From: Eledone cirrhosa
Taxonomy: Eukaryota
Direction of reading: 5' to 3'
Assembly: GCA_964016885.1 (NCBI GenBank)
Contig: OZ024741.1
Coordinates: 240,002,001 to 240,066,000, forward strand
DNA length: 64,000 bases
A program made the position numbers and the translations under genes. The notes beneath the pieces were generated by a model. The model was not told the origin of the DNA. It made no database searches and saw only the letters and a program-made list of their open reading frames with translations. Shown piece after piece: positions 3,175 to 61,135 of the stretch (positions are counted from its first letter, which is position 1; every line of letters starts with the position of its first letter).

Positions 3175-4509
3175 AATAATTGGTGTAGAATCATAATAGA
3201 AATTAATTTCTATATATTTCTTTTCCCATAAAATTGGAACAATGATAGGAACACAGGCATAACAAAGAATATCACATGAAATATATATATAAGCCAGCAA
3301 AGTAAAAATCTGAGTAGGGAAGTGAGTAGGCAGAAACATTTAAGTGTCAGACAAAATATATTGTTAGGATTTATTTCAAGTCATTACATTCTGAGTTCAA
3401 ATCACACCAAGGTCAACTTTGCCTTTCATTCTTCTGGGGTTGATGAAATAAAGTTCCAGTCAAATACAGTTATGTTCTCTAACTAACATGGTTAGTTAGA
3501 GAACATAACTGTCACATCAATGCTATATCTATCTGTAACACACTATATTAGGGGCCAACACAACACACTTCCTATCAGTCATTCACTCAAATACAGACTC
3601 CCTCTAAAAAGCTACACTCCATTAAAAAATGATAATGAAAAAGGAAAACAGGAAAGCAAAATCTGAAGACATGTTATGAACCTAAATTTGTATATGTAGC
3701 ATATTTATTCTCTAAATATAACCTATAATGAAAATAATATTTTGTATTATAATGGTAAATCTTATAATGACTTCTTAAAATCGAATGATGGAAATAATAA
3801 AGATCAACATCTTGATTGAAGTGTCTTGAATAAATATTCCCATAAATTTTAGTTACTTTTATTGTAATTGCAAATAAATAAAAATGTTCAATCATGGAGG
3901 CAAAAGATGCATAAAACACATAGCTAAAAAATATACAACATAATTCACCAATTTCAAATGAAGCTGTACTTTTATAATACATGGCATCACTTCCTAATCA
4001 TCATTTGTCCATCATAAACATTACTTCATCATTGCTAACAATTTACTCACTATAATTACATTTAAACACAGAATATTTCTTTATATTCTATATGAAAAAT
4101 TTGCCTTACAACAAAAACAAACACACTCAAGAACAGAGCCTTATTTAGACTGCTTATATATATATATATATTAACGTATCTTGCATATAGCATCGACTAT
4201 ACAGACACAATAGCACATCTCATAGCAAAAACAAACAAATATACAATACAACATTACCTTATATAGACTGTTCTCTGTTACTGTTCAAATATTATATACT
4301 CATAATTTTGTTTATATGAAATAAGTCACAATATTAAACATTTTAACCAACATCAGCCAAATAATTGTGATATAAAACAATATGGACAACATTATTGAAA
4401 AAATGCCTGAATTATTGTTCAATCTCTTTGTTCACATGTTAATATTAAATATGTTAGAACAATATCTTACAGATTTACTGAGATTATAAAAGATTGAATA
4501 AAAACTTAC

Positions 4510-4940
4510 CTTTTTAATAATTATATCCTTGGTTATTCAGTGAGAATAGAAAGATGTATTGTTGAAGAAAGCTCCATTGTAAGTGCTGCTGTAATGGTGT
4601 GTGACAATGGCTGTATGTTGATGGAGTAGTGTAGCACGTCAGGCAGATAGTCTGCTGCTAGGATAGGGTTGTGTGTGTTATTGAAATTGTATGTTCGTGG
4701 CAGTACATCCCTCTAATAATGTTGTGTATGTATTTATCCTTAATTATGATGTTTGTTTACTGTTATCAATAACTATTTAGATATATTTAAATAGCTACAA
4801 TATTCTAGAGTTAAACATAACATGTTTGGTTTAATAACATCAGTAATGTGAATATTTCTCTTTGTTAATGATTTCTGTCTATGTTTTATTGAGAATCTGA
4901 TTGGTTGAATGACCTAAACAGAAGACCAATAACAATGTTC
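4510..4940 (-). promoter_or_regulatory. Conserved promoter + non-coding leader exon module for gene G0 (CDS left of window)
   Basis: Block repeated once per gene unit; ATTGG 4900-4904 and CCAAT 4926-4930; ends in AG|GTAAGT donor (4510/4509). Confidence 0.65.
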
Positions 4941-5348
4941 TTTTTAATTTTTTTTTTTTTTTTTTTTACTAAATGGGAAGAGGCTTCTTATTTAAAGTAA
5001 GGGTTGGATTTGTGTATTTATGCCTTTCCTTCTGAACATTATTAATAATTGTAACTAGATATATTCTAAAGTGTATTTCATATAAATTATAAAGCTTTTT
5101 TGATGCAATTTTCTCAAATAAAACCATCAAGTGCGGATGATATTTCTGTATTTAAATTTAAACTAACTTAATAATATTAAGGCAGAAAATATTTATTTAT
5201 TGGTAAAAATTCATGTCTGTAGAAAGAATGATGATTTATAGAAACACCCTATCTTATGAACACATTTCAGATAATAAAGAAGGTATATATTGATATGTGT
5301 GTTGAGCATATTCAAATAGAGAATGTTGTTTATGTCACTTCAATATAA

Positions 5349-5425
5349 TTATACATGTTTCACAGGTGTTTCTTCACTGGAATCTTTTGATGTAGATGTA
5401 TCATTGTTTTTATATATATTTTGAT
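5349..5425 (-). CDS. Pcdh: G1 protocadherin last coding exon, (D)QNIYKNNDTSTSKDSSEETPVKHV*
   Basis: 77-nt block conserved without indels in all 7 units, preceded by TAG acceptor; phase matches the G|GTTAAT donor of the previous exon. Confidence 0.75.
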
Positions 5426-5643: not shown

Positions 5644-5809
5644 CTGATATTCCTGGTATTTCTTCATAATGTTTCATATCACCTTCATTCAATACACGTC
5701 TACTACTTCTCTTAGATGACATTGTATCTGATGTATAGTTACAAACTATAGGAGGATTATCTTCCACAGCATCATCACTTGATGTCACCACAACAGGTTG
5801 ACAATATTT
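5644..5809 (-). CDS. Pcdh: G1 protocadherin cytoplasmic exon, KYCQPVVV...HYEEIPGIS
   Basis: Pyrimidine tract + CAG acceptor at 5811/5810, in phase 0 with large exon; near-identical in 7 units. Confidence 0.85.
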
Positions 5810-5928
5810 CTGTTGACAAATAAACCAAGAGAAATGTGAGGAGACATCAAACAATCCTAGTTACAATAAACATGTAGTATACAATTTAATATTGGACTAT
5901 ATTATTGAAGATAAAACATTGTTAAAAT

Positions 5929-6106
5929 AATTGTTTCTACATTAGGCACAAGGCCAGCAATTACCCAGTGTATTACTGGTACTTTATTTTATCGACCCCG
6001 TAAGGATGAAAGGCAAAGTTTACCTTGGCGGGATTTGAACACAGAATGGCAAGGGCCGTAACTCTATGCGTCAAAGCATGGCGTCCAGCCCTCTACCGAT
6101 ACTGCC
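5929..6106 (-). mobile_element. tRNA-derived SINE in the short G1 intron
   Basis: Same family as 2997-3174; absent from the paralogous introns of G2-G7. Confidence 0.85.
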
Positions 6107-6166
6107 AATCCACATATCTTTTACATTTAAAGTGAAGATAGAAAATATTTTAATCTTTTCACTTAC

Positions 6167-8542
6167 TGGGGTAGGTTTTGGTAAAGTTCTTGACTGAACT
6201 GAAGCTTCATATTTATTCTGTAGCTGACCTTCTGAATAACATTCACTCTTTGATCTCTCAGAATATATATTTCTTTTTATCATCTCTTCTGTATTCCTTG
6301 ACATAGCAACAGGATTGTTAGACTGATACAACAATTGTTTCATCTCTGTTCTACCTTGGTATGCTGTAGTCTTTGTTGTAGTAGCTGTGTTATCTCTGTG
6401 TTTAATACATTTCATTATACACAGTGTTATAGAAACAACAATAGCCACTGATACTATTACTGCTGATGATACAATGATAATAACCCATGTCATATGGACT
6501 CTACCTGAAGATTGTATAGGTACACTTTTCAACATTGGTGATGTCTCATTACTAACAGCCAATACCAAAGTCACACTAGTTGTTGATGACTGAACTGGAC
6601 TACCACTGTCTTTTACAACAAACTTTAGTTCATAACTTCCAGCATCATTTAGATAAACTTGTCTGGAGAATGATAAAGCACCACTGTGTGAGTTCATAGT
6701 AAACAACTGTTTATTATTTCCTTGTATGATTCCATATATGAGGAAAGCATTGTTTCCACTGTCACTATCAGATGCTCTCAAAACTGTGATGTCACTCTTA
6801 CTCTGGGGATGGTAGTGGACATTTAGGGTATAAGGGTTAACACTAGGAAAGGTGAAATATGGAACATTGTCATTTTGATCTAAAATCTCAACAACAACAT
6901 TGGCTGTGTCATTCAGAGATGGATTTCCATTATCTATGACAAAAACTTCAAATTTATACACATCTTGTTTCTCTCTGTCTAATGACATGGTGGCTGAAAT
7001 AAAGCCATAACTGGTGATCAGAAATGGTAGATTTGATTTTTCTTTATGTAGCAGAGAATATGTGAGTTGTCCAGCAGATCCAAGGTCAGGGTCAGTGGCA
7101 TTGACAAAACCAATAGGGAAGTCTTTATCTTTGTTTTCATAGGTCAGGAATTGGAATGTATCTTTGGTAAACTGTGGTTGTACATCATTAATATCAGTCA
7201 CTTGGATAGAGAGAGTTTTAACACTTTTAAGAGGTGGTAATCCTTTATCTTGACAGGAGACAGGAATGTTATAGTGTCCTTGTGTTTCTCTGTCTACTGG
7301 TTTATTTAGAACTATTTTATATTCTTTAGATCCCATTGACTGTAGTTTGAATGTATTATGTTTGATATCACAGCTGATCTCTCCATTTTGTCCAACATCA
7401 TTGTCAGTGACCATCACATAAGCAATGAAACTACCAACTTTGATCTTCTCAGAAATTGTTCCTGAGTTATAATTAAGAGCAGAAACATAATCTATATCAA
7501 TAGATGGCGGGTTGTTGTGTTGGTTGACAATATTTACCAGAACTGTTCCTATGGAACTGAAGGGAGGGTTACCCCCATCTCTGGCTTCTATAAATAGTTC
7601 ATAGGTTTTCCTTTTTCCTAAACTTGAATATTTACTTAAGAAAATGTTTCCACTGGTTTCATTTAATTGGAAATATCTTTTTGTTAGGTCTGATGTCTTT
7701 GGACTGAAATGGAAACTAATTTTACCATTTTCACCAGAATCAGAATCTGTTACAGATAAAACAATGATAGGTTTAGATTTGTGATGTGTACTTTGTATGG
7801 ATATATTGTATAGAGGTTTAGAAAACACTGGTGGGTTGTCATTCACATCTATTATAGAGATATTTATATTTAAAATACCTTGTTTTGATGGTGAACCTCC
7901 ATCTTTAGCTATGACTTGTAGTAAATATGTATCTTTGATTTCTCTGTCTAATGAATCTTTTAAAATTATGTTAAGAGAAGAAATACCATCTGCTCTTTTA
8001 GAGACTGACAAAGAGAATGGACTTCTATTTTTTGTTTTTAGTTCATATTGTATTAATGAATTTTGAAAACCTACATCTTTGTCTATAGCATTTGGTAGCG
8101 ATCTTTTGGCACCTTTGCTAATATCTTCACCAAATTGTATGTTGACATTCTTTATAGGAAACTCTGGCTGATGGTCATTGATGTCTTCTATTACTATTTT
8201 GACTTTTATAATTTTTGTAAAAGTTTCCACTTTCTTTATAATAATTTTAACAGTTCTAGAACATTCTTTGTTGAAAGAACAGAGTTTCTCTGCATCCAGT
8301 GTCTGAGCAGTGTACAGTTTACCTGTTTCGGTGATATTAAATAACTGTGCCACCTTTCGTTTAAATTGACTAAATGTTATCAATTGTTGGTCAGATGGTT
8401 TAACATTGTCTAAAAGTTTAGAATCAGCAGCAATGTCTGCTACATATGTTCCTGGACTTCTCTCTTCTTCCACATGGTAGGTAAGGTCTATGGTCAGAAC
8501 ACAGTGGACCATTGATAATACAATAGACAATGACAGTAACAT
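6167..8542 (-). CDS. Pcdh: G1 protocadherin large exon: signal peptide, EC1-EC6, TM, juxtamembrane (792 codons)
   Basis: DxNDxxP, LDRE, AxDxGxP cadherin motifs, C-x5-C in EC1, TM WVIIIVSSAVIVSVAIVVSITLCIM; CCA|GTAAGT donor at 6167/6166; acceptor tttcag ends at 8599. Confidence 0.95.
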
Positions 8543-10169
8543 ATTGTTGGTGTTGCTTGGTACTGGTTAAAGATGGCCAGATATCTTGAGTATTGAACCT
8601 GAAACAAATATATCATTTCCTGAATTATAATTGTTGTACATTACCCATAGATTAATATAACATTTGGTATATCATTTTGTTTATAATTTTATTTGAGAAG
8701 GAAGTGCAGTGTATATAGCCTTCCCACTCATATGAGTCAGTGGTAGAGGTTATCAGATTAAGGTTAATATAGCTAGTATTCAGTGACTGATGATTAAGCA
8801 AATTTGGAATTGAATCCTAGTCATCTCTAGACAAATGCAATGATTTAAACATTAACTGATCTATGTAAAATGTTTTCCTGGGAGTAAGATATATTAGATT
8901 AATTAGAAATGAGAGAGAAGTTAATAAAATATACGTGTTTTGCTAGAGTTGGTGTAATGTCAAAATATTCAGAAGAGTAGAAATCATCTTCACGCTAACT
9001 TAATACACATAATAGGTATGAGTGAGGCTGGCTATGTTTGCTTTTATGATACAGTAACAGAATATATATGTTTAGATGGTGGAGAGAAGAGTGTCCTCCT
9101 CCTCCTCCTTCCCTTCATTTAACGTCTCTTTTCCCTGTTAGCAAGGGTTGGAGAAGTTGTCACAGACTGATTAGTACTTAAGCAGAGCAACAGGCCTCTT
9201 ACATTTTAGTGATTGTTCTGATGGGCTGGGATATTTTTAACTGTATAACAGTGGGACAAAATTGTGTCTAGTTTAGAGAAGTAAATATTGCAGATTGACA
9301 CATATTTCCAGAAAGTGCAATTTAATATTTAAAATGTAACCTTGTGTTACAGAAGGTGACAGTTTTTGGTCAGATGCTGTTCTCAATTAATGTGAGTTAA
9401 TGTTGTGTGAGCTAACACATATGTTGTGATCCAAAATATTACATGTAGCTAGCTTGACCATAAGGCTCTTAAACTTGACATGCTTCATGTCAAAGTTGAG
9501 AACATTCTTTTCACTTAAAGTTTCAAAGTAAAAGTAAGAACATCTTTGTAGTACATAAGAGCATAAGTTTTCAGTAAATTTGGCTTTGAAAATTCATAAT
9601 GGTTGATGTTATGTAATCCTGATTAACTCTGATCAAACAGGCCTATGCCGTGTATGTAGTTAGTTTAATATCTAGGAGTAATCTACATATCATGTACTGT
9701 AGATATTCTCTGCATCTACCTAAGTATCAAATTTAACACTCCCATAATTAGTTTTATTACATGGTGTACAAAGGAGGCAAATTGGCAGAATTGTTAGAAT
9801 GTTGGATAGAATGCTTTGGTCAATATATAAACTACCAGTCCAGTACTGGAGTTACTTCTTTCTCTATATCTCCTCTTCTCTGGAAGAAATCAGTTGAGTC
9901 GAGACCCAATGAGTGATAGGCTCCACCAGGTTTAATATGCCTACTACGACACTCCTGACACCACCAGGAGTTACATAAATATATGGCGCACAATATGAAT
10001 GTCTCTGCAGGTACAAATTTATCCATTTTATCTTGTTCATCTCTGCTTGAAAATTCAGATATTGACTGTATAAGTAGTCTGCAAGGCAGAATCAGTTGGA
10101 TGCACTAGTTATTTTCTTTTTGCTTTCATAAGTTAGTCAGAACAGAACTCATGAACTTTGCAGCTACTC

Positions 10170-10870
10170 CTCTAATGGTGAACTTAATGCAGTTAATGCT
10201 CATTTGCAGGTTTATGTCTGAAGTTATAACATAGATAGACAAGGTATTCTGGAAGGTTAGCAAAGAATCATTGAACAAAGAACTTATTGGACTGAGCAGG
10301 GTGGGACATACTGTAGACAATGAGAGGCAAGAGAAAATGGTATATCTTGTTGATTTGAGTGGAGAGTATATGCAGATTGCTAGTTGAGAGGAGCAAAGGC
10401 TCTTTTAATAGTGGTTGGAGAGACAATGTATCTGTCAGTTAGTGGCTTTGCAAATCAGCCGAATGATCTTATTTTGGACATGATGTTAAATATTTGTGTA
10501 TGTAGCAGCAAGACCATACCAGTACTCTAATGTGGGTCATACTTAAGCTTTTCACATGCCCAGCAACTAAACTAATAAAACTCAAGTATTTTCTAATCTT
10601 GATGAGGAAGCCTACAATTATGGAATGATATGGCTGCTATTTCCAACAGATTCAGTAATCACGTTGTTGTGTTGGTGTAAAAGATGCCTGGATGATTGGC
10701 AGTGTTTGTATACGTAATAGCATGAGCAATAAGGAATTGCTGGGTTGACTGAATAACTTTTGACATAGGACCAAAGGTTGAGCAATTTTAAAGACACTTG
10801 ATGATTTTGTGGGCAGATTAATAAATACCCTAAAATCTTTAGTGTAACAGTCATTTATAGAAACCTCATA
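10170..10870 (-). mobile_element. Degenerate CR1/Jockey-like LINE 3' fragment
   Basis: Decayed frames resembling AxVxPTLEY and NxLxxYVxxSDxNLQ motifs of LINE ORF2 C-termini. Confidence 0.4.
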
Positions 10871-12535
10871 TACAACTTAGTCATTTTTCACTTTTCATTA
10901 ATCTACCTTATTCTTACTGAATATATCATAATTAGCAGTGTGAGATATTTATCACATAGCTACACATATATTGAAAGTATATTAATGACAAATAAGATAA
11001 TAATTTATATCATTTCAGGATAATGATTTATGTATAATAAACATATATTCTTCATTGTGGGTTGACTAAAGGCTAAACAACAACAATAACAATGATGATG
11101 ACATCATAGGTTTGCATTCTTCAATCAAATATAAATCACCCCAATAAAGGAAATAATATTGAAAATAATAATTAATGATATTTTAGTGAAACCTACTTAA
11201 ATTTAATTAATATAATTGGTTATTTTTTTACATCCAAAGATATGTAATATATAGTAACATGTTATATAAGCAAAATGAACATTGTGGAGCAGTTAGTGAG
11301 TTATTAGCAAATGTAGGAATATTGTATTAATTCATTTATAAATGATATAAACAACACAGGAAAATGAAACAGCAAAATATATTCGTGTACAGTCACAACA
11401 GAAGCTAAATTTGTGTATGTCTTTCTTTTTACAATGAAGTCGAAACAAAGACAGAAACATAGGCATAAAATGTAACAAAGTGGTACATAAGGAATATGAA
11501 AAATATATGAAATAAATATTTAGATTATATTTTTAAATTAACAACATAAAATTCTAAAACATGTTCTGAATATTAGACAATATATTTTTCCTGATATAAA
11601 TAATCGATGATGATAATAATAGATGATATAATAATGTTAAAACATTATCTAAAGCTGGAAATAATATTGCTCCAAAAATAAAAGAAAATAAAGCAAGAAA
11701 GATTAAACATTTTGATAGGATTTACTTGGATATGAAGTTTTCAATTAAATTTTATTATAAAAGAAAAATGACTTATTAAAATGTAAATATATATTTGTAT
11801 AATTTGTAAATGAAAAAAAAAAATATGCATCACAAGAGAAACATGTATACATATAAATAAACATCTTTTCACATATTTAAAATAAAACCAGAAATATCAC
11901 AATATATGCTACCATCTCCATTCCTGAGAGTTATATATATCCTAATATGTCCACCATTATCCCAAACTGGGCAATTCACAAAACTATGATCCTTTTGCAT
12001 ATGATGGAAGACAGGGATCAGTAGCAGAAGCTGACTGCCAAAACATCTAAGTCAATAACCAATTGCACAAGTTATACCTAGATGAGGATGATGATGATCC
12101 CTAACCCAAATCTACAACACACTACTACCTCATCACTACTAAAAATTTACACATTATAACCAGATTTAAAACATTGTAGAATATATTTTACTAACCATCT
12201 TAAAATATTTCGTATATAATCTACTATACAGACACAACATTACATTATTATTACAATAAAAACAAACACACATTACAACACTGCATTATATTGACCGTCC
12301 TCTATTGTTACTGATCAATATATTTAACAAATATTATATAAACAGATAATATTGTTTCGATGGAACACTTCATTGTGATATAAAGCAATATGTACAACAT
12401 TACTGAAAAATAAGTGAATTATTGTTTAATCTCTTTGTTCTCAAGTTAATATTAAATATGTTAGAACAATATCTTACAGATTTACTGAGATTTAGTATAT
12501 AAAATGAGATTATAAAAGATTAAATAAAAACTTAC

Positions 12536-12970
12536 CTCTTTAATAATTATATCATTGGTTATTCAGTGAGAATAGAAAGATGTATTGTTGTAGAAAGCTC
12601 CATTGTAAGTGCTGCTGTAATGGTGTGTGACAATGGCTGTATGTTGATGGAGTAGTGTAGCACGTCAGGCAGATAGTCTGCTGCTAGGATAGGGTTGTGT
12701 GTTATTGAAGTTGTATGTTTGTGGCAGTACATCTCTCTAATAATATTGTGTATGTATTTATCCTTAATTATGATGTTTGTTTACTGTTATCAATAACTAT
12801 TTACATATATTTAAATAGCTACAATATTCTCTAGTTAAACATAACATAAATGTTTGGTTTAATAACATCAGCAATGTGAATGTTTCTCTTTGTTAGTGAT
12901 TCCTGTCAATGTTTTAGTGAGAATCTGATTGGTTGAATTACCTAAACATAAAACCAATGACAGATGTTCT
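12536..12970 (-). promoter_or_regulatory. Promoter/leader exon module for G1
   Basis: Same conserved block; ATTGG 12928, CCAAT 12954; GTAAGT donor at 12535. Confidence 0.65.
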
Positions 12971-13486
12971 CTTTAATATTAATTTGTTTCCATGACGTAG
13001 ACAGCTTCAGTTTATAACTGGGTATAAGTGTGATGGTGTGACATTCATACCGCATTCATGAGCCTTAGTAACTATATATTATTAAATGTATATATTATTT
13101 TAAAATACATTTCACATTAAATATTTTTTAAAAAATGACGATTTTTTAGCTAAAATTTGAATTTATTTTCTATTATTAAACATTTAAAAAGGAAAATTTA
13201 CAAAAGATACTTTTGATTTCCTACTCCCCACCATACCTGTAGTTTCTTGCAGAAATTAATGTAAATGGAAGGTACATTGCAAACATAATATTTGAGATGT
13301 TCTGAATTGAATATATCTACATAATAATGATTGATTGCTTATCTATAAAATATAAGTTTTAGCTATTAAAATAACGTTTTGGCTCAATTATAGACACCTG
13401 TGTTTAGTAGAATACACACTGCTATATGTGCATATACATTTTATATTCATCTAAAGAAAGATAGTTATATCACTTCAGTAATATAA

Positions 13487-14127: not shown

Positions 14128-16503
14128 TTGGGTAGGTTTTGGTAAAGTTCTTGACTGAACTGAAGCTTCATATTTATTCTGTAGCTGACCTTCTGAATAA
14201 CATTCACTCTTTGATCTCTCAGAATATATATTTCTTTTTATCATCTCTTCTGTATTCCTTGACATAGCAACAGGATTGTTAGACTGATACAACAATTGTT
14301 TCATCTCTGTTCTACCTTGGTATGCTGTAGTCTTTGTTGTAGTAGCTGTGTTATCTCTGTGTTTAATACATTTCATTATACACAGTGTTATAGAAACAAC
14401 AATAGCCACTGATACTATTACTGCTGATGACACAATGATAATAACCCATGTCATATGGACTCTACCTGAAGATTGTATAGGTACACTTTTCAACATTGGT
14501 GATGTCTCATTACTAACAGCCAATACCAAAGTCACACTAGTTGTTGATGACTGAACTGGACTACCACTGTCTTTTACAACAAACTTTAGTTCATAACTTC
14601 CAGCATCATTTAGATAAACTTGTCTGGAGAATGATAAAGCACCACTGTGTGAGTTCATAGTAAACAACTGTTTATTATTTCCTTGTATGATTCCATATGT
14701 GAGGAAAGCATTGTTTCCACTGTCACCATCAGATGCTCTCAAAACTGTGATGTCACTTTTACTCTGGGGATGGTAGTGGACATTTAGGGTGTAAGGGTCA
14801 ACACTAGGAAAGGTGAAATATGGAACATTGTCATTTTGATCTAAAATCTCAACAACAACATTAGCTGTGTCATTTAGAGATGGACTTCCATTATCTTTGA
14901 CAAAAACTTCAAATTTATACACATCTTGTTTCTCTCTGTCTAATGACATGGTGGCTGAAATAAAGCCATAACTGGTGATCAGAAATGGTAGATTTGATTT
15001 TTCTTTATGTATCAGAGAATATGTGAGTTGTCCAGCAGATCCAAGGTCAGGGTCAGTGGCATTGACAAAACCAATAGGGAAGTCTTTATCTTTGTTTTCA
15101 TAGGTCAGGAATTGGAATGTATCTTTGGTAAACTGTGGTTGTACATCATTAATATCAGTCACTTGGATAGAGAGAGTTTTAACACTTTTAAGAGGTGGTA
15201 ATCCTTTATCTTGACAGGAGACAGGAATGTTATAGTGTCCTTGTGTTTCTCTGTCTACTGGTTTATTTAGAACTATTTTATATTCTTTAGATCCCATTGA
15301 CTGTAGTTTGAATGTATCATGTTTGATATCACAGCTGACCTCTCCATTTTGTCCAACATCATTGTCAGTGACCATCACATAAGCAATGAAACTACCAACT
15401 TTGATCTTCTCAGAAATGGTTCCTGAGTTATAATTGAGAGAAGAAACATAATCTATATCAATAGATGGAGGGTTGTTGTGTTGATTGATAACATTTACCA
15501 GAACTGTTGCTATGGAACTGAAGGGAGGGTTACCCCCATCTCTGGCCTCAATAAATAGTTCATAGGTTTTCTTTTTCCCCAAAGTTGAATATTTACTTAA
15601 GAAAATGTTTCCACTGGTTTCATTTAACTGAAAATAACTTTTTGTTAGATCTGATGTTTTGGGGCTAAAATGGAAAGTAATTTTACCATTTTCACCAGAA
15701 TCAGAATCTTTTACAGATAAAACAATGATAGGTTTAGATTTGTGATGTGTACTTTGTATGGATATATTATATAGAGGTTTAGAAAACTCTGGTGGGTTAT
15801 CATTCACATCTATTATAGAAATATTTATATTTAAAATACCTTGTTTAGATGGTGAACCTCCATCTTTAGCTATGACCTGTAGTAAATATGTATCTTTGAT
15901 TTCTCGATCTAATGAATCTTTCAAAACTATGTTAAGAGAAGAAATACCATCTGCTCTTTTTGTTACTGACAAAGAGAATGGTTCTCCATTCTTGGATTTT
16001 AATTTATATTGTATTAATGAGTTCTGAAAACCTACATCTTTGTCTATGGCATTTGGTAGTGACTGTTTTGTGCCCTTTCCATCTGTTTCTGAGAATTTTA
16101 GAGAAATTTGTTTCTCAGAGAACTCTGGCTGATGGTCATTGATGTCTTCTATTACTATTTTGACTTTTATGATTTTTGTGAAAGTTTCCACTTTCTTTAT
16201 AATAATTTTTACAGTTCTAGAACATTCCTTGTTGAAAGAACAGAGTTTCTCTGCATCCAGTGTCTGAGCAGTGTACAGTTTACCTGTTTTCGTGATATTA
16301 AATAACTGTGCCACTTTTCGTTTAAACTGACTGAATGTTATCAATTGTTGGTCTGATGGTTTAACATTGTCTAAAAGTTTAGAATCAGCAGCAATGTCTG
16401 CTACATATGTTCCTGGACTTCTCTCTTCTTCCACATGGTAGGTAAGGTCTATGGTCAGAACACAGTGGACCATTGATAATACAATAGACAATGACAGTAA
16501 CAT
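14128..16503 (-). CDS. Pcdh: G2 protocadherin large exon (792 codons)
   Basis: Intact ORF, 6 EC + TM; CAA|GTAAGT donor. Confidence 0.95.
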
Positions 16504-19044: not shown

Positions 19045-19480
19045 CTCTTTAATAATTATATCCTTGGTTATTCAGTGAGAACAGAAAGACGTATTGTAGT
19101 AGAAAGTCCCATTGTAAGTGCTGCTGTAATGGTGTGTGACAATGGCTGTATGTTGATGGAGTAGTGTAGCACGTCAGGCAGATAGTCTGCTGCTAGGATA
19201 GGGTTGTGTGTGTTATTGAAGTTGTATGTTTGTGGCAGCACATCTCTCTAATAATATTGTGTGTGTATTTAACCTTAAAGATGATGTTTGTTTACTGTTA
19301 TCAAAAAGTATTTACATATATTTAAATAGCTACAATATTCTATAGTTAAACATAACATAAATGTTTGGTTTAATAACATCAGTAATGTGAATGTTTCTCT
19401 TTGTTGGTGATTTCTGTCTATGTTTAGTGAGAATCTGATTGGTTGAATGACCTAAACAGAAGACCAATGACAATGTTCTT
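19045..19480 (-). promoter_or_regulatory. Promoter/leader exon module for G2
   Basis: Conserved block; ATTGG 19438, CCAAT 19464; donor at 19044. Confidence 0.65.
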
Positions 19481-19837
19481 TTCAAATTGATTTATTTTAG
19501 TGAGACTAAAGATTTTATATTAATAGTAAAAAGTAAAATAGATTCTGTGATGTTCATGAACATCATTTAATTTTTTTCTTATCTGGTAATAAGGAGCCTC
19601 CTACAAATCAAATGTTTATTGGAAAATAGAAAACTAATTTCATCGCATTTTCCTTGCATAGTAGAAAAGATTTGATTAATATTTTCAATTAAAATTATAT
19701 TTATTCCTACGTTAATAAAAATACATTCCATTGCTTAAAGAAATTTATCCTTAGGTAACTTATTAACATACTTATTCTAATGCGCACACACATATCTGAA
19801 TGTGCGTGTGTGTGTGTATGTCACTTCAGTAATATAA

Positions 19838-20582: not shown

Positions 20583-22958
20583 TGGGGTAGGTTTTGGTAA
20601 AGTTCTTGACTGAACTGAAGCTTCATATTTATTCTGTAGCTGACCTTCTGAATAACATTCACTCTTTGATCTCTCAGAATATATATTTCTTTTTATCAAC
20701 TCTTCTGTATTCCTTGACATAGCAACAGGATTGTTAGATTGATACAACAATTGTTTCATCTCTGTTCTACCTTGGTATGCTGTAGTCTTTGTTGTAGTAG
20801 CTGTGTTATCTCTGTGTTTAATACATTTCATTATACACAGTGTTATAGAAACAACAATAGCCACTGATACTATTACTGCTGATGATACAATGATAATAAC
20901 CCATGTCATATGGACTCTACCTGAAGATTGTATAGGTACACTTTTCAACATTGGTGATGTCTCATTACTAACAGCCAATACCAAAGTCACACTAGTTGTT
21001 GATGACTGAACTGGACTACCACTGTCTTTTACAACAAACTTTAGTTCATAACTTCCAGCATCATTTAGATAAACTTGTCTGGAGAAGGATAAAGCACCAC
21101 TGTGTGAGTTCATAGTAAACAATTGTTTATTATTTCCTTGTATGATTCCATATATGAGGAAAGCATTGTTTCCACTGTCACCATCAGATGCTCTCAAAAC
21201 TGTGATGTCACTCTTACTCTGGGGATGGTAGTGGACATTTAGGGTGTAAGGGTCAACACTAGGAAAGGTGAAATATGGAACATTGTCATTTTGATCTAAA
21301 ATCTCAACAACAACATTGGCTGTGTCATTCAGAGATGGACTTCCATTATCTTTGACAAAAACTTCAAATTTATACACATCTTGTTTCTCTCTGTCTAATG
21401 ACATGGTGGCTGAAATAAAGCCATAACCTGTGATCAGAAATGGTAGATTTGATTTTTCTTTATGTAGCAGAGAATATGTGAGTTGTCCAGCAGATCCAAG
21501 GTCAGGGTCAGTGGCATTGACAAAACCAATAGGGAAGTCTTTATCTTTGTTTTCATAGGTCAGGAATTGGAATGTATCTTTGGTAAACTGTGGTTGTACA
21601 TCATTGATATCAGTCACTTGGATAGAGAGAGTTTTAACACTTTTAAGAGGTGGTAATCCTTTATCTTGACATGAGACAGGAATGTTATAGTGTCCTTGTG
21701 TTTCTCTGTCTACTGGTTTGTTTAGAACTATTTTATATTCTTTAGATCCCATTGACTGTAGTTTGAATGTATCATGTTTGATATCACAGCTGATCTCTCC
21801 ATTTTGTCCAACATCATTGTCAGTGACCATCACATAAGCAATGAAACTACCAACTTTGATATCTTCAGAAATGGTAGCTGTGTTGTCATTGATAGCAGAA
21901 ACATAATCTATATCAATAGATGGAGGGTTGTTGTGTTGATTGACAATATTTATCAAAACTGTTGCTATGGAACTAAATGGAGGGTTGCCTCCATCTCTGG
22001 CCTCTATAAATAATTCATAGGTTTTCTTTTTTCCTAAACTTGAATATTTACTTAAGTAAATGTTTCCACTAGTTTCATTTAATTCGAAGTAATGTTTTGC
22101 TAGATCTGATGTCTTTGGACTGAAATGGAAAGTAATTTTACCATTTTCACCAAAATCAGAATCTGTTACAGATAAAATAATGATAGGTTTAGATTTGTGA
22201 TGTGTACTTTGTATGGATATATTATATAGAGGTTTTGAAAACTCTGGTGGGTTGTCATTCACATCTATTATAGAGATATTTATATTTAAAATACCTTGTT
22301 TTGATGGTGAACCTCCATCTTTAGCTATGACCTGTAGTAAATATGTATCTTTGATTTCTCTATCTAATGATTCTTTTATAACTATGTTAAGAGAAGAAAT
22401 ACCATCAGCTCTTTTAGAAACAGACAGAGAGAATGGTTCACCATTCTTTGATTTTAATTTATATTGTATTAATGAGTTTTGAAAACCTATATCTTTGTCT
22501 ATGGCATTTGGTAGTGATTGTTTTGTGCCCTTTCCATCTGTTTCTGAGAACCTTAAAAAAATTTGTTTCTTTGGAAATTCAGGCAGATGGTCATTGATAT
22601 CTTCTATTACTATTTTGATTTTTAATATTTTAGTAACACTTCTTCCTTTATTAATAACAACCTTAACTGTTCTAGAACATTCTTTGTTAAATGTACAGAG
22701 CTTCTCTGCATCCAGTGTCTGAGCAGTGTACAGTTTACCTGTTTTGGTGATATTAAATAACTGTGCCACCTTTCGTTTAAATTGACTGAATGTTATCAAT
22801 TGTTGGTCAGATGGTTTAACATTGTCTAAAAGTTTAGAATCAGCAGCAATGTCTGCTACATATGTTCCTGGACTTCTCTCTTCTTCCACATGGTAGGTAA
22901 GGTCTATGGTCAGAACACAGTGTACCATTGATAATACAATGGACAATGACAGTAGCAT
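20583..22958 (-). CDS. Pcdh: G3 protocadherin large exon (792 codons; true ATG at 22958)
   Basis: Intact ORF, 6 EC + TM; ORF-track extension to 23030 crosses the tttcag acceptor at 23022. Confidence 0.95.
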
Positions 22959-27266: not shown

Positions 27267-27712
27267 CTTTTTAATAATTATATCATTGGTTATTCAGTGA
27301 GAACAGAAAGATGTATTGTTGTAGAAAGCTCCATTGTAAGTGCTGCTGTAATGGTGTGTGACAATGGCTGTATGTTGATGGAGTAGTGTAGCACGTCAGG
27401 CAGATCGTCTGCTGCTAGGATAGGGTTGTGTGTGTTATTGAAATTGTATGTTTGTGACAGTACATTTCTCTAATAATATTGTGTATGTATTTATCCTTAA
27501 AGATGATGGTTGTTTACTGTTATCAATAACTATTTACATATATATAGATATATATATTAAATAGCTACAATATTCTATAGTTAAACATAACATGTTTGGT
27601 TTAATAACATCAGTAATGTGAACGTTTCTCTTTGTTAGTGATTTCTGTCTATGTTTTAGTGAGAATCTGATTGGTTGAATGACCTAAACAGAAGACCAAT
27701 GACACTGTTCTC
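27267..27712 (-). promoter_or_regulatory. Promoter/leader exon module for G3
   Basis: Conserved block; ATTGG 27670, CCAAT 27696; donor at 27266. Confidence 0.65.
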
Positions 27713-28109
27713 TTTAATATTGATTTTTTCTTTTTTTTTAGAGGCTTCATATTTAAAGTAAGGGTTGGATTTGTGTATTTATGCCTTTCCTTCTGAACAT
27801 TATTAATAATTGTAACTAGATATATTCTAAAGTGTATTTCATATAAATTATAAAGCTATGTTGATGCAATTTTCTCAAATAAAACCATCAAGTGCGGATG
27901 ATATTTCTGTATTTAAATTTAAACTAACTTAATAATATTAAGGCAGAAAATATTTATTTATTGGTAAAAATTCATGTCTGTAGAAAGAATGATGATTTAT
28001 AGAAACACCCTATCTTATGAACACATTTCAGATAATAAAGAAGGTATATATTGATATGTGTGTTGAGCATATTCAAATAGAGAATGTTGTTTATGTCACT
28101 TCAATATAA

Positions 28110-35100: not shown

Positions 35101-35550
35101 CTCTTTAATAATTATATCATTGGTTATCCAGTGAGAATAGAAAGATGTATTGTTGTAGAAAGCTCCATTGTAAGTGCTGCTGTAATGGTGTGTGACAATG
35201 GCTGTATGTTGATGGAGTAGTGTAGCACGTCAGGCAGATAGTCTGCTGCTAGGATAGGGTTGTGTGTGTTATTGAAGTTCTATGTTTGTGACAGTACGTC
35301 TCTCTCATAATATTGTATAAGTATTAATCCTGAAATATGATGTTTGTTTACTGTTATCAATAACTATTTACATATATATAGATATATATATTTAAATAGC
35401 TACAATATTCTATAGTTAAACAGCATAAATGTTTGGTTTAATAACATCAGTAATGTGAATATTTCTCTTTGTTAGTGATTTCTGTCTATGTTTTAATGAG
35501 AATCTGATTGGTTAAATGACCTAAACACAAGACCAATGGCAGATGTTCTC
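35101..35550 (-). promoter_or_regulatory. Promoter/leader exon module for G4
   Basis: Conserved block; ATTGG 35507, CCAAT 35533; donor at 35100. Confidence 0.65.
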
Positions 35551-36108
35551 TTTAATATTGATTTTGTAGGTAAAGCAGACGTTTCATATTTATAGGAAAA
35601 GAAGAAAGAGATGGTGTGTCAATCATGCCTTTCCCCAAAGCTATTATTACCATAAGTTACACTAAATTTTTAATATTATAACTACTAAAATATGAGGACA
35701 TTTTTTTCGCATTAACAAAAAAATCCTTTGGTATTCTAAATACCACCTTAAGTAGAATTACATAAATCCCTTAAAAAACATGGTAAACTATATAAAATGT
35801 TGTCAATTAATTCATCTCATTAAACATTAAAGTGCATCATAGAAAGGTACAAGTTTTTTTTTTATTGTAGTATATCTAAAGGTATTTTTCAAACAAGATA
35901 AACGTAACTATTTTAAACAGACCTATAGACACTTTTAGGTAACATTGTTCCTTTATAAAACCCTCCTATCTCTCATAATGTACACTGTAGCAAAGTCTAT
36001 TTACTATACTGTGTGATTGTTGGTTTGTGTATGTGTTCATTTGTATACTGTACAATCAATATTATAAAATTAAATAGACAAAAGAGTTATATTATTACAC
36101 TAATATAA

Positions 36109-47024: not shown

Positions 47025-47460
47025 CTCTTTAATAATTATATCATTGGTTATTCAGTGAGAACAGAAAGATGTATTGTAGAAAGCTCCATTGTAAGTGCTG
47101 CTGTAATGGTGTGTGATAATGGCTGTATGTTGATGGAGTAGTGTAGCACGTCAGGCAGATAGTCTGCTGCTAGGATAGGGTTGTGTGTGTTATTGAAGTT
47201 GTATGTTTGTGACAGTACATCCCTCTAATAATATTGTGGATGTATTTATCCTTAATTATGAAGTGTATTTACTGTTATCAAAAAGTATTTACATATATTT
47301 AAATAGCTACAATATTCTATAGTTAAACATAACATAAATGTTTGGTTTAATAACATCAGTAATGTGAATGTTTCTCTTTGTTAATGATTCTGTCTATGTT
47401 TTAGTGAGAATCTGATTGGTTGAATGACCTAAACAGAAGACCAATGACAGATGTTCCCCT
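47025..47460 (-). promoter_or_regulatory. Promoter/leader exon module for G5
   Basis: Conserved block; ATTGG 47415, CCAAT 47441; donor at 47024. Confidence 0.65.
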
Positions 47461-47966
47461 AATATTGATTTCTTTTGGTAGCACAGAGGGTCTCATATAT
47501 AGGGAAAGAAGAAAGAGATGGTGTGACAGTCATGCCTTTCCCCAAAATTATTCATACCATAAGATACACATTTTTAATATTACTACTAAGACATGTGGAA
47601 AATGTTTTCTAACACAGAAATAAACATTTGGTATTTTTACATACCACCTTAAATAGAATTACATAAATCCTTTAAAGAATGTTAAACTATAGAAAATGTC
47701 CTGAATTAATTCATCTCATTACATATAGTAATATTTATAAAACATATAATAATTTTTCAATCAAGGTAAACTTAACAAATAGAAACAGGTCTATAGCTAC
47801 TTATAGGACACATTCATCATTTAATAAGGCTTTCCTGTTTTTGATAGTGTAGATTGTGGCAAAGGCTATTTAATATAGAATGTGTGTTTGCATGTTCATA
47901 TGTATATTTTAGTCAATATTTTATATTTGCATTGAGAAAGGAAGTTATATTATTGCACTAATATAA

Positions 47967-48223: not shown

Positions 48224-49693
48224 ATGCACAAGGAGGGCTCAGTCCTTGGGCCCCTCCTGTTTATTATTGCCCTCCAGGCTATAACGGAGGAGTTTGGGAC
48301 CGGCTACCCGTGGGAGCTTCTATACGCAGATGATCTGATGCTCATAGCTGAGTTAGTGGCTGAGCTGGAGAAGGAATTCCAAACATGGAAGCATGGCCTG
48401 GAATCAAAAGGCCTTAAAATTAACTTGTCTAAGACTAGAGTTCTAATATGTAGGAAGGAAAATAGGGCACTGGTCCCATCTGGGAAATGGCCATGCTCGG
48501 TGTGTAGGGCGGGGAGTAGGTAGAAGCTCTGTTTTATGTCCCAAATGCAAAGTATGGGTGCATATGAGATGTGGTGGGATCACAGGTAAGCTAACTAAGA
48601 ATATAGATTTTATATGTGGTCGGTGCTCAGGTGCAATAAGTAGCAGCAAATGCCCACAGAATACTAGCGCAATCCATTGCCCAGCTGGTTCTATAGAAGT
48701 GGTGGACACCTTCCGTTACCTGGGTGATAGAATCAGCAGTGGTGGAGGGTGCTCTGAAAGTACAGTAGCTAGAGTCAGAACGGGATGGAAAAGGTTCAGA
48801 GAGCACATACCACTATTGGCCGCTAAAGGTTTCTCTCTAAAAATGAAAGGCAGGCTGTATGATGCCTGCGTACGAACAGCGGTGTTGCATGGCAGTGAGA
48901 CATGGGCATTGTGTGCAGAGGATCTACGTGGACTGGAGAGGAACGGGGCTTGCATGCTCTGTTGGATGTGTAATGGTATTGTGCATGAGCGGCAAAGCAT
49001 GGATGGACTAAGTGAGAAATTAGGAATAAGAGGGATCAGATGCTGTTTACTCGAGAGAGGACTACGTTGGTGTGGTCACGTGGTGCGCATGAGGGACGGC
49101 AGCTGTATGAAGAAGTGTAGGGCGATCAAAATAGACAGTAGCTATGGAGTGGGGAAACCCAGAAAAACCTGGGACGACTTGATAAATTCCGACCTCACAC
49201 ACTTACACCTCTCCAAGACAATGTCACTGGACCGAGATCTTTGGCGCTACGCAGTAATACAGAGGCCCCGCCTTGCCTAAGTACAAAGCGAAACCTGGGA
49301 CGGGGGTGTATTTTGGTTAAGAGGTGCCTACAGTCAGTAGGCACCTCTTAACCAAAATACACCCCCGTCCCACAACTCCTACCCCCACCCCTTTTGATGT
49401 AAAGTTATGTTGGTACCACAACATCCAGTCCTAAATAAATGAGGTCGCGTAAGTGGCATGACAAAAAAAACACAGTCCACGCTGTAATGTGACCGTGTAG
49501 GTAACACGGTAAAAACCTCCCAGTCCACACTGTAAACGTGGTTGGTGTTAGGAAGGGCATCCAGCCGTAGAAAAGCCGCCAGACAGTCCTATACGTGCAA
49601 GACAACCAATCTTGTCTCAAGTGGGACAATCCCCGTCCAAACCCATGCTAGCGTGGAAGATGGACGTTAAACGATGATGATGATGATAATGAT
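48224..49693 (+). mobile_element. 5'-truncated RTE-like LINE, same family as 36974-38273
   Basis: GSVLGPLLF, LLYADDL RT motifs, HGSETW, (GAT)n tail. Confidence 0.92.
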
Positions 49694-54894: not shown

Positions 54895-56690
54895 ATCAGT
54901 CATGAAGATATGACTAGCACCAGATCTAATGAAGATATGACCAGCACTAAGAATAATGATAATATGACCAGTATTAAGAATAATTGTTTCTACTTTAGGC
55001 ACAAGGCCAGCAATTACCCAGTGCATTACTGGTACTTTATTTTATCGACCCCGTAAGGATGAAAGGCAAAGTCAACCTCGGCGGGATTTGAACTCAGATC
55101 GTAAAGGGACGTAACTATGCTGGAAAGCAAGATATGACAAGCAAGCACTAGGGATAGTGAAAATATGACTAGTACCAGGTCTAATGAAGATATGACTAGC
55201 ACTAAGAATAATGATAATATGACTAGCACTAGGTATAATGATAATATGACCAGTATTAAGAATAATGAAGATATGACTAGCACTAAGAATAATGATAATA
55301 TGACTAGCACTAGGTATAATGATAATATGACCAGTATTAAGAATAATGAAGATATGACTAGCACTAGGTATAATGATAATATGACCAGTATTAAGAATAA
55401 TGAAGATATGACTAGCACTAAGAATAATGATAATATGACTAGCACTAGGTATAATGATAATATGACCAGTATTAAGAATAATGAAGATATGACTAGCACT
55501 AGGTATAATGATAATATGACCAGTATTAAGAATAATGAAGATATGACTAGCACTAGGTATAATGATAATATGACCAGTATTAAGAATAATGAAGATATGA
55601 CTAGCACTAAGAATAATGATAATATGACTAGCACTAGGTATAATGATAATATGACCAGTATTAAGAATAATGAAGATATGACTAGCACTAGGTATAATGA
55701 TAATATGACCAGTATTAAGAATAATGAAGATATGACTAGCACTAAGAATAATGATATGACTAGCACTAGGTATAATGATAATATGACCAGTATTAAGAAT
55801 AATGAAGATATGACTAGCACTAGGTATAATGATAATATGACCAGTATTAAGAATAATGAAGATATGACTAGCACTAGGTATAATGATAATATGACCAGTA
55901 TTAAGAATAATGAAGATATGACTAGCACTAGGTATAATGATAATATGACCAGTATTAAGAATAATGAAGATATGACTAGCACTAGGTATAATGATAATAT
56001 GACCAGTATTAAGAATAATGAAGTTATGACTAGCACTAGGTATAATGATAATATGACCAGTATTAAGAATAATGAAGATATGACTAGCACTAGGTATAAT
56101 GATAATATGACCAGTATTAAGAATAATGAAGATATGACTAGCACTAAGAATAAAGATATGACTAGCACTAGGTATAATGATAATATGACCAGTATTAAGA
56201 ATAATGAAGATATGACTAGCACTAGGTATAATGATAATATGACCAGTATTAAGAATAATGAAGATATGACTAGAACTAGGTATAATGATAATATGACTAG
56301 CACTAGGTATAATGATAATATGACCAGTATTAAGAATAATGAAGATATGACTAGCACTAAGAATAATGATAATATGACTAGCACTAGGTATAATGATAAT
56401 ATGACCAGTATTAAGAATAATGAAGATATGACTGGCACTAGGTATAATGATAATATGACCAGTATTAAGAATAATGAAGATATGACTAGCACTAGGTATA
56501 ATGATAATATGACCAGTATTAAGAATAATGAAGATATGACTAGCACTAAGAATAATGATATGACTAGCACTAGGTATAATGATAATATGACCAGTATTAA
56601 GAATAATGAAGATATGACTAGCACTAGGTATAATGATAATATGACCAGTATTAAGAATAATGAAGATATGACTAGCACCAGGTATAAATT
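54895..56690. repeat. 27-bp minisatellite with 54-bp higher-order alternation (~60 units)
   Basis: ATGACTAGCACTAGGTATAATGATAAT / ATGACCAGTATTAAGAATAATGAAGAT units. Confidence 0.97.
54982..55118 (-). mobile_element. tRNA-derived SINE (5'-truncated) inside the minisatellite start
   Basis: Same family as 2997-3174. Confidence 0.8.
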
Positions 56691-59372: not shown

Positions 59373-59810
59373 CTTTTTAATAATTATATCATTGGTTATC
59401 CAGTGAGACCAGTGTTGTAGAAAGCTCCATTGTAAGTGGTGCTGTAATGGTGTGTGACAATGGCTGTATGTTGATGGAGTAGTGTAGCACGTCAGGCAGA
59501 TAGTCTGCTGCTAGGATAGGGTTGTGTATATTATTGAAGTTGTATGTTTGTGGCACTACATCCCGCTAATAATATTGTGTATGTATTTATCCTTAATTAT
59601 GATGTTTGTTTACTGTTATCAATAACTATTTACATATATATAGATATATATTTAAATAGCTACAATATTCTATAGTTAAACATAACATGTTTGGTTTAAT
59701 AACATCAGTAATGAGAATGTTTCTCTTTGTTAGTGATTTCTGTCTATATTTTAGTGAGAATCTGATTGGTTGAATGACCTAAACAGAAGACCAATGACGA
59801 TGTTCTCATT
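59373..59810 (-). promoter_or_regulatory. Promoter/leader exon module for G6
   Basis: Conserved block; ATTGG 59765, CCAAT 59791; donor at 59372. Confidence 0.65.
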
Positions 59811-61135
59811 AATATTGATTTGACAAGGCAAAATACCTTAAATTTATATGAGGAAGAACTTGAGATTATGTGATGTTCATCATTTTTCACTAGACTTACT
59901 GACATTGATAACTATATTTATGCTGAAATATATTCCTAAAATTCAATGTCAGTATCATTTAAAATAATATTTATTTATTATTTTAATTAGAATGTTTCCA
60001 TATTTTCAGAAAATATGTAACACTATTTCTCATTTAACCTAGAAATATTGTTTATAATTAGAATTTAATTTAAAAATGAAGCTGTAATTAGTAATATTTG
60101 TGAACCATAATTTCATTTGAAGACATATCTACTGAATATGAATAATATCTATTTTAGTCTATTGATTTTTGGATAGGAAAAATTTAATTACTTTGACCTA
60201 AGAACTTAACTGATACTTAAATTATTTCAAGAACAATTTAAGGAAAATTTGACTCTGGCAAAATTGAAATTCAGTATATAAAAGGCAGCAACTAAATATC
60301 ACAAGGCATCTTGTCCTGATGTACTACTGATTCTGCCAATCCACCACTTCAATAATGTTTACTAATTGAGACACAAGGCTTCAGAATTTTAGTCTGTGGT
60401 TTAGTTGGTTTTATCAACTTCAATATTAGACCAATACTTATTTCATCAACCTCAATGTTAAATCAGCTGCAGGGAGATTGGAATTGAGATAGTAAAGGGA
60501 TGTAACTAAATACTGGGCATTTTGTTGATTGGTCAACTAATTCTGACAATCCATCAATCTAAATAATAATAATAATAATAATTGTTTCTAATAAAACCAG
60601 AAATTTAGTAGGATCAAATTGACCCTAGTACTTGGAAGAGACTCTATTGCATTGAGCCAGGAAGGATGAAAAAATAAAGTACAAGCCAAGTATTGGGGGT
60701 CAATTCAACTCCATTACAAAAATACAAATTTGCATAGCTGGGCATAGCTAACTTAATGAAATCTAGTTTATGGCTGGTACAGCGTTATTGATTACTAATG
60801 GTAATGATAAATTATATATTTATGTATGTGTGTGCACATATATTTACATCTATATATATATGTGTGTGTGTGTATATATATAGGCATTCATGAAAAATGA
60901 ATATAAGACAATTGTTGTACAGAATCTTATAATGACTTAAAGGAAACTCTATTAATTTACAGAACTTCATGTTAACTTATTGAAACCAATGCTCAGTTAG
61001 TGACAGGTCTGCCTTTACATATATACACTGCTATATAGAACATAATAAAGAATATGTATGTTGAGAGTGTATGTGTACTGATCTATCTATATTTTATATT
61101 CAAAGAGAAATTGTTTAATCACTTCACTAACATAA

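Follow-up and report, generated by a model that had tools for sequence, protein, structure and literature searches.

The window analyzed here is a stretch of 64,000 nucleotides (nt) from the genome of the octopod Eledone cirrhosa, running from position 240,002,001 to 240,066,000 of contig OZ024741.1 (called C2 below) in an assembly of 3.0 Gb. Its long open reading frames number seven, and all lie on the minus strand: six are complete (826 to 855 codons) and the seventh is cut at the window end. The encoded proteins are protocadherins, matching the Pfam families Cadherin (E = 2.6e-70) and Cadherin_2, and the nearest database proteins, from Octopus vulgaris (88%) and Argonauta hians (84%), are both named protocadherin beta-like. 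Between the genes a conserved module ending in a splice donor is repeated, and this report concerns what that module is and to which gene it belongs.

Each protocadherin unit is a complete gene with its own cytoplasmic exons. Annotated homologues (868 to 873 amino acids) extend beyond the end of the window's reading frames (...TLPKPTP, at a GTAAGT) by two short exons, both of which are present in every unit of the window. Splicing was followed in four runs, all in the form of contigs: X11, from the same coded organism as the window's DNA runs; X1, from a second organism; X5, from a third; and X6, a fourth run. We treated them as RNA because of their spliced joints. Introns 6166-5810 and 5643-5426 have canonical ends (CT..AC on the plus strand) and are spanned by RNA-like contigs in all four runs. 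The possession of separate cytoplasmic exons agrees with the main-text account of Albertin et al. 2022 (PMC9068888), in which cephalopod protocadherins are whole-gene duplicates, homogenized by gene conversion and without variable-to-constant exon splicing. The parts of the gene with its ATG at 8542 are as follows (UTR, untranslated region).

8599-12535, minus strand: intron 1, 3937 nt, mostly unalignable among copies.
6167-8598, minus strand: large exon, with 56 nt of 5' UTR, the ATG at 8542, a signal peptide, cadherin repeats, a transmembrane segment and the start of the cytoplasmic tail.
5644-5809, minus strand: small cytoplasmic exon (KYCQPVVV...EEIPG), with joints 5809/6167 and 5425/5644 in all four runs.
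5349-5425, minus strand: last coding exon (...EETPVKHV and stop), followed by 3' UTR, assigned by homologue match and contig joints.

A repeat finder returned the modules as a seven-member family with starts at 4479, 12505, 19014, 27236, 35070, 46991, and 59332, and a seven-way alignment of the window copies has 425 invariant columns out of 664; together these bear out the seven copies listed in an earlier note, which had been made from the letters of the window alone. The module is oriented on the minus strand, so that the first copy reads from 4965 to 4510.

4510-4965, minus strand: module copy 1, with its 5' edge about 25-35 nt above the ATTGG box and its last exon base at 4510; the large exon of its gene lies below the window, with the ATG at C2:240,000,747.
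12536-12990, minus strand: module copy 2, its leader exon running from 12767 or higher down to 12536 by a spliced contig; its gene has the large exon 8598-6167.
19045-19500, minus strand: module copy 3, for the large exon with its ATG at 16503.
27267-27735, minus strand: module copy 4, for the large exon with its ATG at 22958.
35101-35570, minus strand: module copy 5, for the large exon with its ATG at 31123.
47025-47480, minus strand: module copy 6, for the large exon with its ATG at 41657.
59373-59830, minus strand: module copy 7, for the large exon with its ATG at 52564.

This repetition is not due to chance. The whole genome contains 30 full-length module copies of 89-100% identity, all on the minus strand of C2:239,954,676-240,228,447, and the core of the module (4571-4672 in copy 1) gives 9 extra short matches, of 55-58 nt at 82-83%, in a second sub-array near 238.4 Mb. 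All 39 matches lie inside protocadherin arrays on a single contig and a single strand (minus, C2:238.38-240.23 Mb), which rules out a dispersed repeat or transposable element. When the first 81 residues of the protein were used as a query, exactly 30 open large exons were found at 94% identity or more, in the same interval as the modules. Comparison of the two lists of genomic coordinates showed that the 30 modules and 30 large exons alternate strictly, one to one, with the module upstream in every case and 2,025-6,880 nt of genomic DNA between module and ATG. The proposal of one module per protocadherin thus holds for the entire sub-array.

The motifs and parts of the module are given here for copy 1.

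4930-4926 and 4904-4900, minus strand: opposed ATTGG and CCAAT boxes with a 26-nt offset, candidate NF-Y sites.
4784-4793, minus strand: TATA-like element TATTTAAATA, followed by a variable (TA)n stretch and GTAAATAG.
4754-4760, minus strand: forkhead-like site GTAAACA (TGTTTAC on the plus strand).
4571-4672, minus strand: leader-exon core, about 100% identical in the 30 copies and covered by spliced contigs, hence transcribed.
4634-4641, minus strand: TGACGTGC, a bZIP half-site resembling the cyclic AMP response element (CRE), in 29 of 30 copies, with TGACG in 30 of 30.
4643-4655, minus strand: inverted repeat GCAGACTATCTGC, with GCAGAC-N-ATCTGC in 30 of 30 copies.
4504-4509, minus strand: GTAAGT splice donor at the start of intron 1; contigs from three runs use the corresponding donor at 12536.

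Most of what the earlier note had described in the module extends to the genomic copies. The opposed boxes, as ATTGG-N21-CCAAT, occur in 7/7 window copies and 29/30 genomic ones, and TATTTAA in all 30. The almost invariant core of about 100 nt and the GCAGA-N3-TCTGC pattern hold throughout. The Fox-like site has the exact form GTAAACA in six of the seven window copies; genomically, GTAAACA is among the commonest variants. The donor GGTAAGT is found in 30/30 copies, as AG/GTAAGT in 28 of them and as TG/GTAAGT in the other two. One claim needed trimming. The flanks, described as mostly unrelated, are so upstream of the module; past the donor, about 430 nt of intron can be aligned at 73-94%. Conservation among the 30 copies begins abruptly near 4965 and reaches about 100% at 4672-4571. 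The module region is poor in CpG (observed/expected 0.25), and TGACGTGC contains the sole CpG common to every copy. Copy 1 alone has a run of 20 A (gene strand) at 4941-4962, directly at the 5' edge of the module.

The donor of the module is joined to an acceptor ahead of a large-exon ATG. Contigs from three runs (one in X11, one in X1 and five in X5) connect the donor at 12536 to the acceptor at 8597/8598, 56 nt ahead of the ATG, as had been predicted. The X11 contig, 506 nt long, aligns to 12767-12536 and then to 8597-8331, giving a leader exon of at least 232 nt. The X1 contig joins 8596/12534, where shifting the cut by 2 yields CT..AC, i.e., GT..AG on the gene strand. The X5 contigs join 12534 to 8525-8549, one of them via 37 letters of diverged 5' UTR, and X6 contigs cover the leader without a joint from leader to large exon. 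Acceptor-like sites lie 56, 89, 63, 86, 49, and 86 nt ahead of the six window ATGs, matching the 49-89 nt given earlier, and intron 1 of these six genes is 2452-6722 nt long. The leader is non-coding, again as proposed: an upstream ATG open into the main frame was found in none of the six reconstructed gene 5' ends, and the translated module is absent from the annotated protein homologues of 868-873 residues.

The leaders do contain two or three short upstream reading frames each, two of which recur in nearly all 30 copies; all end within the leader. The upstream ATGs of copy 1 are at 4708 and 4577; frames of the MELSTTIHLSILTE type are found in 30/30 copies and those of the MYCHKHTTSITHTTLS type in the majority. 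In another sub-array (L047, near position 105) the last two codons ahead of the donor are ATG-CAG, and the frame begun by this upstream ATG overlaps the main one. A known structured RNA family was rejected as an identity for the leader, since the best Rfam match has E = 0.68, below the gathering score, and the predicted fold is not unusually stable (z-score -0.97).

The 5' edge of the module lies only 410-1340 nt past the stop codon of the preceding gene, so position alone cannot assign the module to one gene or the other. The low-coordinate end of the sub-array is more telling. There the small exon of the last gene is followed, about 1.7 kb on, not by a module but by a diverged leader, with only a 28-nt match to the core and with its own GTAAGT donor. 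The type of block therefore tracks the downstream gene. At the opposite end, a truncated protocadherin fragment (C2:240,231,400-240,232,718; L048 3901-5219) that corresponds to homologue residues 452-843 only is situated about 2.9 kb upstream of the first module, which makes that end undecisive for module ownership.

We consider it likely that each module is the 5' non-coding first exon of the protocadherin gene downstream of it, combined with the probable proximal promoter and the first part of intron 1, one such set per downstream gene. Exactly one module serves each gene, and the exon ends at AG/GTAAGT and is spliced across an intron of 2.5-6.7 kb to the acceptor 49-89 nt ahead of the large-exon ATG. 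Under this reading transcription would likely begin within the block, whether toward its 5' edge or some 30 nt past the TATA-like elements, and the CCAAT pair and the CRE-like TGACGTGC would likely be binding sites for factors acting gene by gene. The promoter role of the 5' half is thus a proposal drawn from the motifs, and a plausible one.

Several observations weigh against this reading. The RNA nature of the runs is a guess (they are marked 'RNA?' or '?'), and contigs cannot show starts; no transcription start was seen in any run. The X11 spliced contig, compared with the assembled paralogs to see whether a leader joins its adjacent large exon or a later one, exactly matches none of them: its exon part is identical over 8520-8598 to the paralog with its ATG at C2:239,992,488, its last 85 leader bases are identical to four other leaders, and the adjacent leader differs from it at 12554, 18 nt from the junction. 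The first 33 bases past the acceptor are, however, identical in that paralog and in the first gene of the window, and the assembly word is 31 letters long; the shared stretch exceeds the word, and a chimeric contig made from two ordinary transcripts explains the mixture. Furthermore, contigs run across the TATA-like and CCAAT motifs, in X11 at 12739-12810, 12781-12863, and 12879-12962 (records 12-14) and in X1 at 12696-12817 and 12805-12916 (records 6 and 7). Such transcripts may have a longer first exon, or may be RNA of the upstream gene, as the tail of its 3' UTR or as read-through. In X5, a single contig connects 13488, at the coding end of the upstream gene, to 12932 in the CCAAT region, skipping 555 nt; with only 21 letters on its shorter side and non-canonical ends, the joint reflects either a shorter 3' UTR in that organism or an artefact. 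Finally, the identity of the promoter part within the sub-array could be explained by gene conversion alone.

The X11 spliced contig ends at 12767 (4743 in the numbering of copy 1), at a distance of about 50 nt from TATTTAAATA and of about 28 nt from GTAAATAG, both of which lie above it. This is the end of a contig and not a start; it would suit a TATA-driven start, and it also adjoins the (TA)n indel region, where assembly graphs break. At 12872 the X11 depth is 53.4, from 5 contigs, against 67.4 in the leader bin, while the proximal intron bin 12348-12531, a stretch that all 30 copies have in common at 85-94% similarity, has depth 0 in 4/4 runs. The latter serves as a control of equal copy number, a weak one; other uncovered parts (most of intron 1, and 13084-13451) and a dip in X5 coverage between 3' UTR and leader were not used as evidence. 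Given coverage of the TATA/CCAAT region beside an empty proximal intron bin, this region is probably transcribed in at least some molecules.

The same coverage gives some room to the possibility that the whole block is exon 1, with a leader of about 430-460 nt and a transcription start close to the 5' edge of the block or right at it, which is about 4965 in copy 1 and 12985 in copy 2. The CCAAT, TATA-like, and forkhead-like motifs would then all be transcribed, the promoter would be the unconserved DNA upstream, and there would be no conserved promoter. The X11 contigs that cover 12739-12962 in three pieces, the X1 contigs that cover 12696-12916 in two, the depth at 12872 as set against that of the leader, the empty intron bin, and the sharp end of conservation at the 5' edge all fit such an arrangement. 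Yet molecules seem to cross that edge, as one X11 contig has 32 unaligned letters past 12962 and another extends across 12976-12978, and the inability of contigs to show starts counts here too. The X5 bin 12716-12899 is uncovered, but X5 contigs continue there as diverged sequence, so this carries little weight. A first exon spanning the entire block is conceivable, though we think it unlikely.

Unlikely as well is a reading in which the 5' half of the block, from about 4965 to 4800, doubles as the 3' UTR tail and polyadenylation region of the upstream gene, in an overlap of promoter and terminator, or is that tail and nothing else. The short distance from the upstream stop codon speaks for it, together with the X5 joint from 13488 to 12932, the contigs that cross the 5' edge, and an ATTAAA at 4835-4830 that is present in 21/30 copies and followed by TGTTATGTTT. 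The hexamer is not invariant, however: it reads ATTTAA in the other 9 of the 30 copies, amid invariant neighbors, and hence is not a constrained feature. The X5 joint has the shortcomings described above, the distal 3' UTR (5000-5300) cannot be aligned among copies, and where the sub-array ends it is the downstream gene with which the block type goes.

Among window units, alignment is possible over the block and about 430 nt of intron, over the large exon, and over both small exons and portions of their introns; it fails over the distal 3' UTR and the greater part of intron 1. Identity within the large exon is mosaic among the six complete genes.

First 300 nt of the large exon: mean pairwise identity 94-97%.
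Next 750 nt: 72-87% as means of 150-nt bins, with 63% for the lowest single pair in a bin.
Remainder, about 1.2 kb: 98-99.6%.

The intron and small exons neighboring the large exon are also about 99% alike among paralogs. Pairwise identity of the modules is flat, at 92.5-95.7%, against 74-91% for the variable part of the ectodomain (r = 0.27). Mosaic identity together with near-identical introns beside the constant parts is a signature of gene conversion, and the pattern looks like conversion that spares the variable ectodomain segment. Gene conversion has been proposed for cephalopod protocadherins in the parts consulted of two articles (PMC9068888, PMC6339937). The 30 near-identical copies would likely have arisen by tandem duplication of whole genes followed by gene conversion, and the same conversion would account for the identity of 94-99.6% at which the large exons are held in their 5' end and their last 1.2 kb. 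Within the module, only the last 80-120 nt or so of the leader is likely to be held by selection, because it is the sole part that survives where promoters and introns no longer align.

That survival is seen across the wider array. The second sub-array aligns with the module only from the bZIP-type site to the donor, and its leader, used as a query, gave 40 matches, all on the minus strand of C2:238.02-240.17 Mb. For 13 sub-array representatives the alignment covers the last 80 nt or so plus the donor and nothing else. A 20-nt leader motif, CAGCAGTTACACTGGAACAC, was found at 98 genomic places when no more than 2 mismatches were allowed, the reversed control being found at 2, and 87 of the 98 places are on the minus strand of C2:238,020,266-239,838,651, a span of about 1.8 Mb. 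There are one to four tandem copies of the motif per site; several sub-arrays have 2-4 copies, spaced 25-31 nt apart within one leader, and the sub-array in the window has a diverged version. Among 14 representatives, shared 7- and 8-mers exceed shuffled sequences only at -120..0 relative to the donor (13/14, versus a shuffled mean of 3.7) and do not exceed them at -560..-240. No ATTGG-N21-CCAAT pair at a constant place was found in the 13 other sub-array representatives, nor did any motif common to the regions upstream of other sub-arrays' leaders rise above shuffles. Judged by these comparisons of the DNA, the CCAAT/TATA part is private to the 30-gene sub-array. In 7/14 representatives the distance from a bZIP-type site, TGACGT or TGACTCA, to the donor is 116-132 nt. 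TGACTCA, which is AP-1-like, replaces TGACGTGC at the same place in six other representatives (L031, L035-L038, L046), and seven more distant representatives have neither.

The earlier note had gone further and taken the module for a cephalopod analogue of the conserved promoter element of the vertebrate clustered protocadherins, and this was not supported. The vertebrate conserved sequence element (CSE) is marked by a CGCT box and bound by CTCF, and its place is upstream of the start site, some 200 bp from the variable-exon ATG with no intron between; exons of the alpha cluster have a second CTCF site within the exon (PMC7811963 and PMC4978886, in the parts consulted). The two systems resemble each other in having one promoter per ectodomain exon, a head-to-tail array on a single strand, and a conserved non-coding element at a fixed place in each unit. 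In vertebrate clusters, too, gene conversion spares a variable part like that of extracellular cadherin domains 2 and 3 (EC2-EC3). The source for the vertebrate pattern is Noonan 2004, as cited in PMC6339937 in the part consulted. CGCT/AGCG occurs in only 3/30 promoter parts, 1/30 leaders, and 1/14 representatives within 600 nt upstream of the donor, so the octopod module lacks a CGCT box. Unlike the CSE, its invariant core is in a transcribed leader exon, with an intron of 2.5-6.7 kb before the ATG. The CSE is common to nearly all cluster members; among the arrays of C2, the CCAAT/TATA part is shared within the 30-gene sub-array only, and the 3' part of the leader is shared more widely. The octopod genes also have their own cytoplasmic exons in place of shared constant exons. 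Membership of the CSE class was rejected on these testable features (no CGCT, a transcribed core, an intron before the ATG, private upstream motifs), and a functional likeness is improbable.

A broader version, in which the block or the leader motif is a selector for stochastic choice of one promoter among many, through CTCF or another factor and in the manner of the CSE and exonic CTCF pair, is one we likewise regard as a long shot. Reviews call the regulation of the cephalopod clusters unknown (PMC10658181, in the part consulted), and a selector would suit the single copy per gene, the invariant core with one conserved CpG in CpG-poor surroundings, and the 87 places at which CAGCAGTTACACTGGAACAC is found on the array strand, each with one to four tandem copies, where the reversed control gave 2. 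Against it, the element is part of a transcript and is followed by an intron, it has no CGCT box, and compared by eye with the CTCF core motif, and not by a matrix scan, it shows no resemblance. In its most specific form, which we regard as less probable still, the leader core, consisting of the bZIP-type site with the sole invariant CpG and the array-wide CAGCAGTTACACTGGAAC motif in 1-4 copies, would be the octopod counterpart of the vertebrate pair of promoter and exonic CTCF sites. Sensitive to methylation and placed a short way past every start site, this DNA element would be recognized by a selector factor that activates a single gene or a small number of genes, out of about 100 protocadherins, in each neuron, and it would have arisen independently, on a non-coding first exon of a kind absent from vertebrates. 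Least tenable of all is the case the earlier note had itself set against its proposal, a block that belongs wholly to the upstream gene, as its 3' UTR or terminal exon, with GTAAGT unused: apart from its nearness to the upstream stop codon it has nothing in its favor, an unused donor is excluded by the contigs that join it to the large-exon acceptor in 3 of the 4 runs, and the homologues end in ...EETPVKHV, encoded upstream of the block.

Other known systems were compared as well. The module resembles an RNA polymerase II promoter of the TATA/CCAAT (NF-Y) type in having a TATA-like element, two CCAAT boxes upstream, a first exon made up entirely of 5' UTR, and a consensus donor; as motifs in the DNA these are present and conserved, in the proportions given above (TATTTAA 30/30, ATTGG-N21-CCAAT 29/30). 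It differs in that the CCAAT boxes would be 140-190 nt above the start if the start is near the TATA-like element, NF-Y boxes usually being at -60 to -100. With the sub-arrays described by Albertin et al. 2022 it shares whole-gene duplication, homogenization by gene conversion, and the lack of shared constant exons, the difference being that the main-text passages of that paper (PMC9068888), supplements aside, contain no 5' non-coding exon, promoter motifs, or leader motif. Chelicerate Dscam arrays use alternative promoters and are alike in being tandemly duplicated units of a recognition receptor, each with its own promoter (PMC6339937, in the part consulted). They are a different gene family, and Dscam units are spliced to shared downstream exons while octopod units are not. 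In the literature as represented by titles, abstracts, and main-text passages, supplements aside, we found no account of cephalopod protocadherin promoters or 5' exons; other octopus genome annotations may already hold such exons.

Three further features were seen in introns of the window. A short repeat at 5926-6113, in the intron after the large exon, has a mean contig-bin depth of up to 691,297 (X11) and hundreds of loose ends, and is apparently an interspersed element of very high abundance. Intron 1 of the gene with its ATG at 52564 contains a tandem array at 55144-56687, with a 27/54-nt period and about 29 copies of the 54-nt unit at 90% matches. On the plus strand, a 277-codon open frame at 48447-49280 occupies a G+C-richer patch in the intron between the two small exons of one protocadherin; it gives a weak PHD-finger match (E about 4e-5, at or below the Pfam cut-off) and is probably an inserted element.

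Cephalopods have more than a hundred protocadherin genes, and the way in which these are regulated is an unsettled matter. A 2023 review (PMC10658181, in the part consulted) calls the clusters still enigmatic and expects vertebrate-like processes, without data. The present analysis gives the position and splice pattern of the 5' exon for every gene of one 30-gene sub-array, and it shows the upstream promoter motifs to be private to that sub-array. Whole-gene duplication predicts such an arrangement, in which every duplicate retains a first exon and promoter to itself, and it is not a new kind of system; the result is useful as an annotation and offers a lead that can be tested. Paralog-specific tags for long-read or single-cell studies are provided by two variable stretches, the last 60 nt of the leader and the 5' UTR of the large exon. 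The array-wide leader signature, a by-product of the work, marks 87 places over about 1.8 Mb and would be a useful handle on how octopod neurons choose among their protocadherins.

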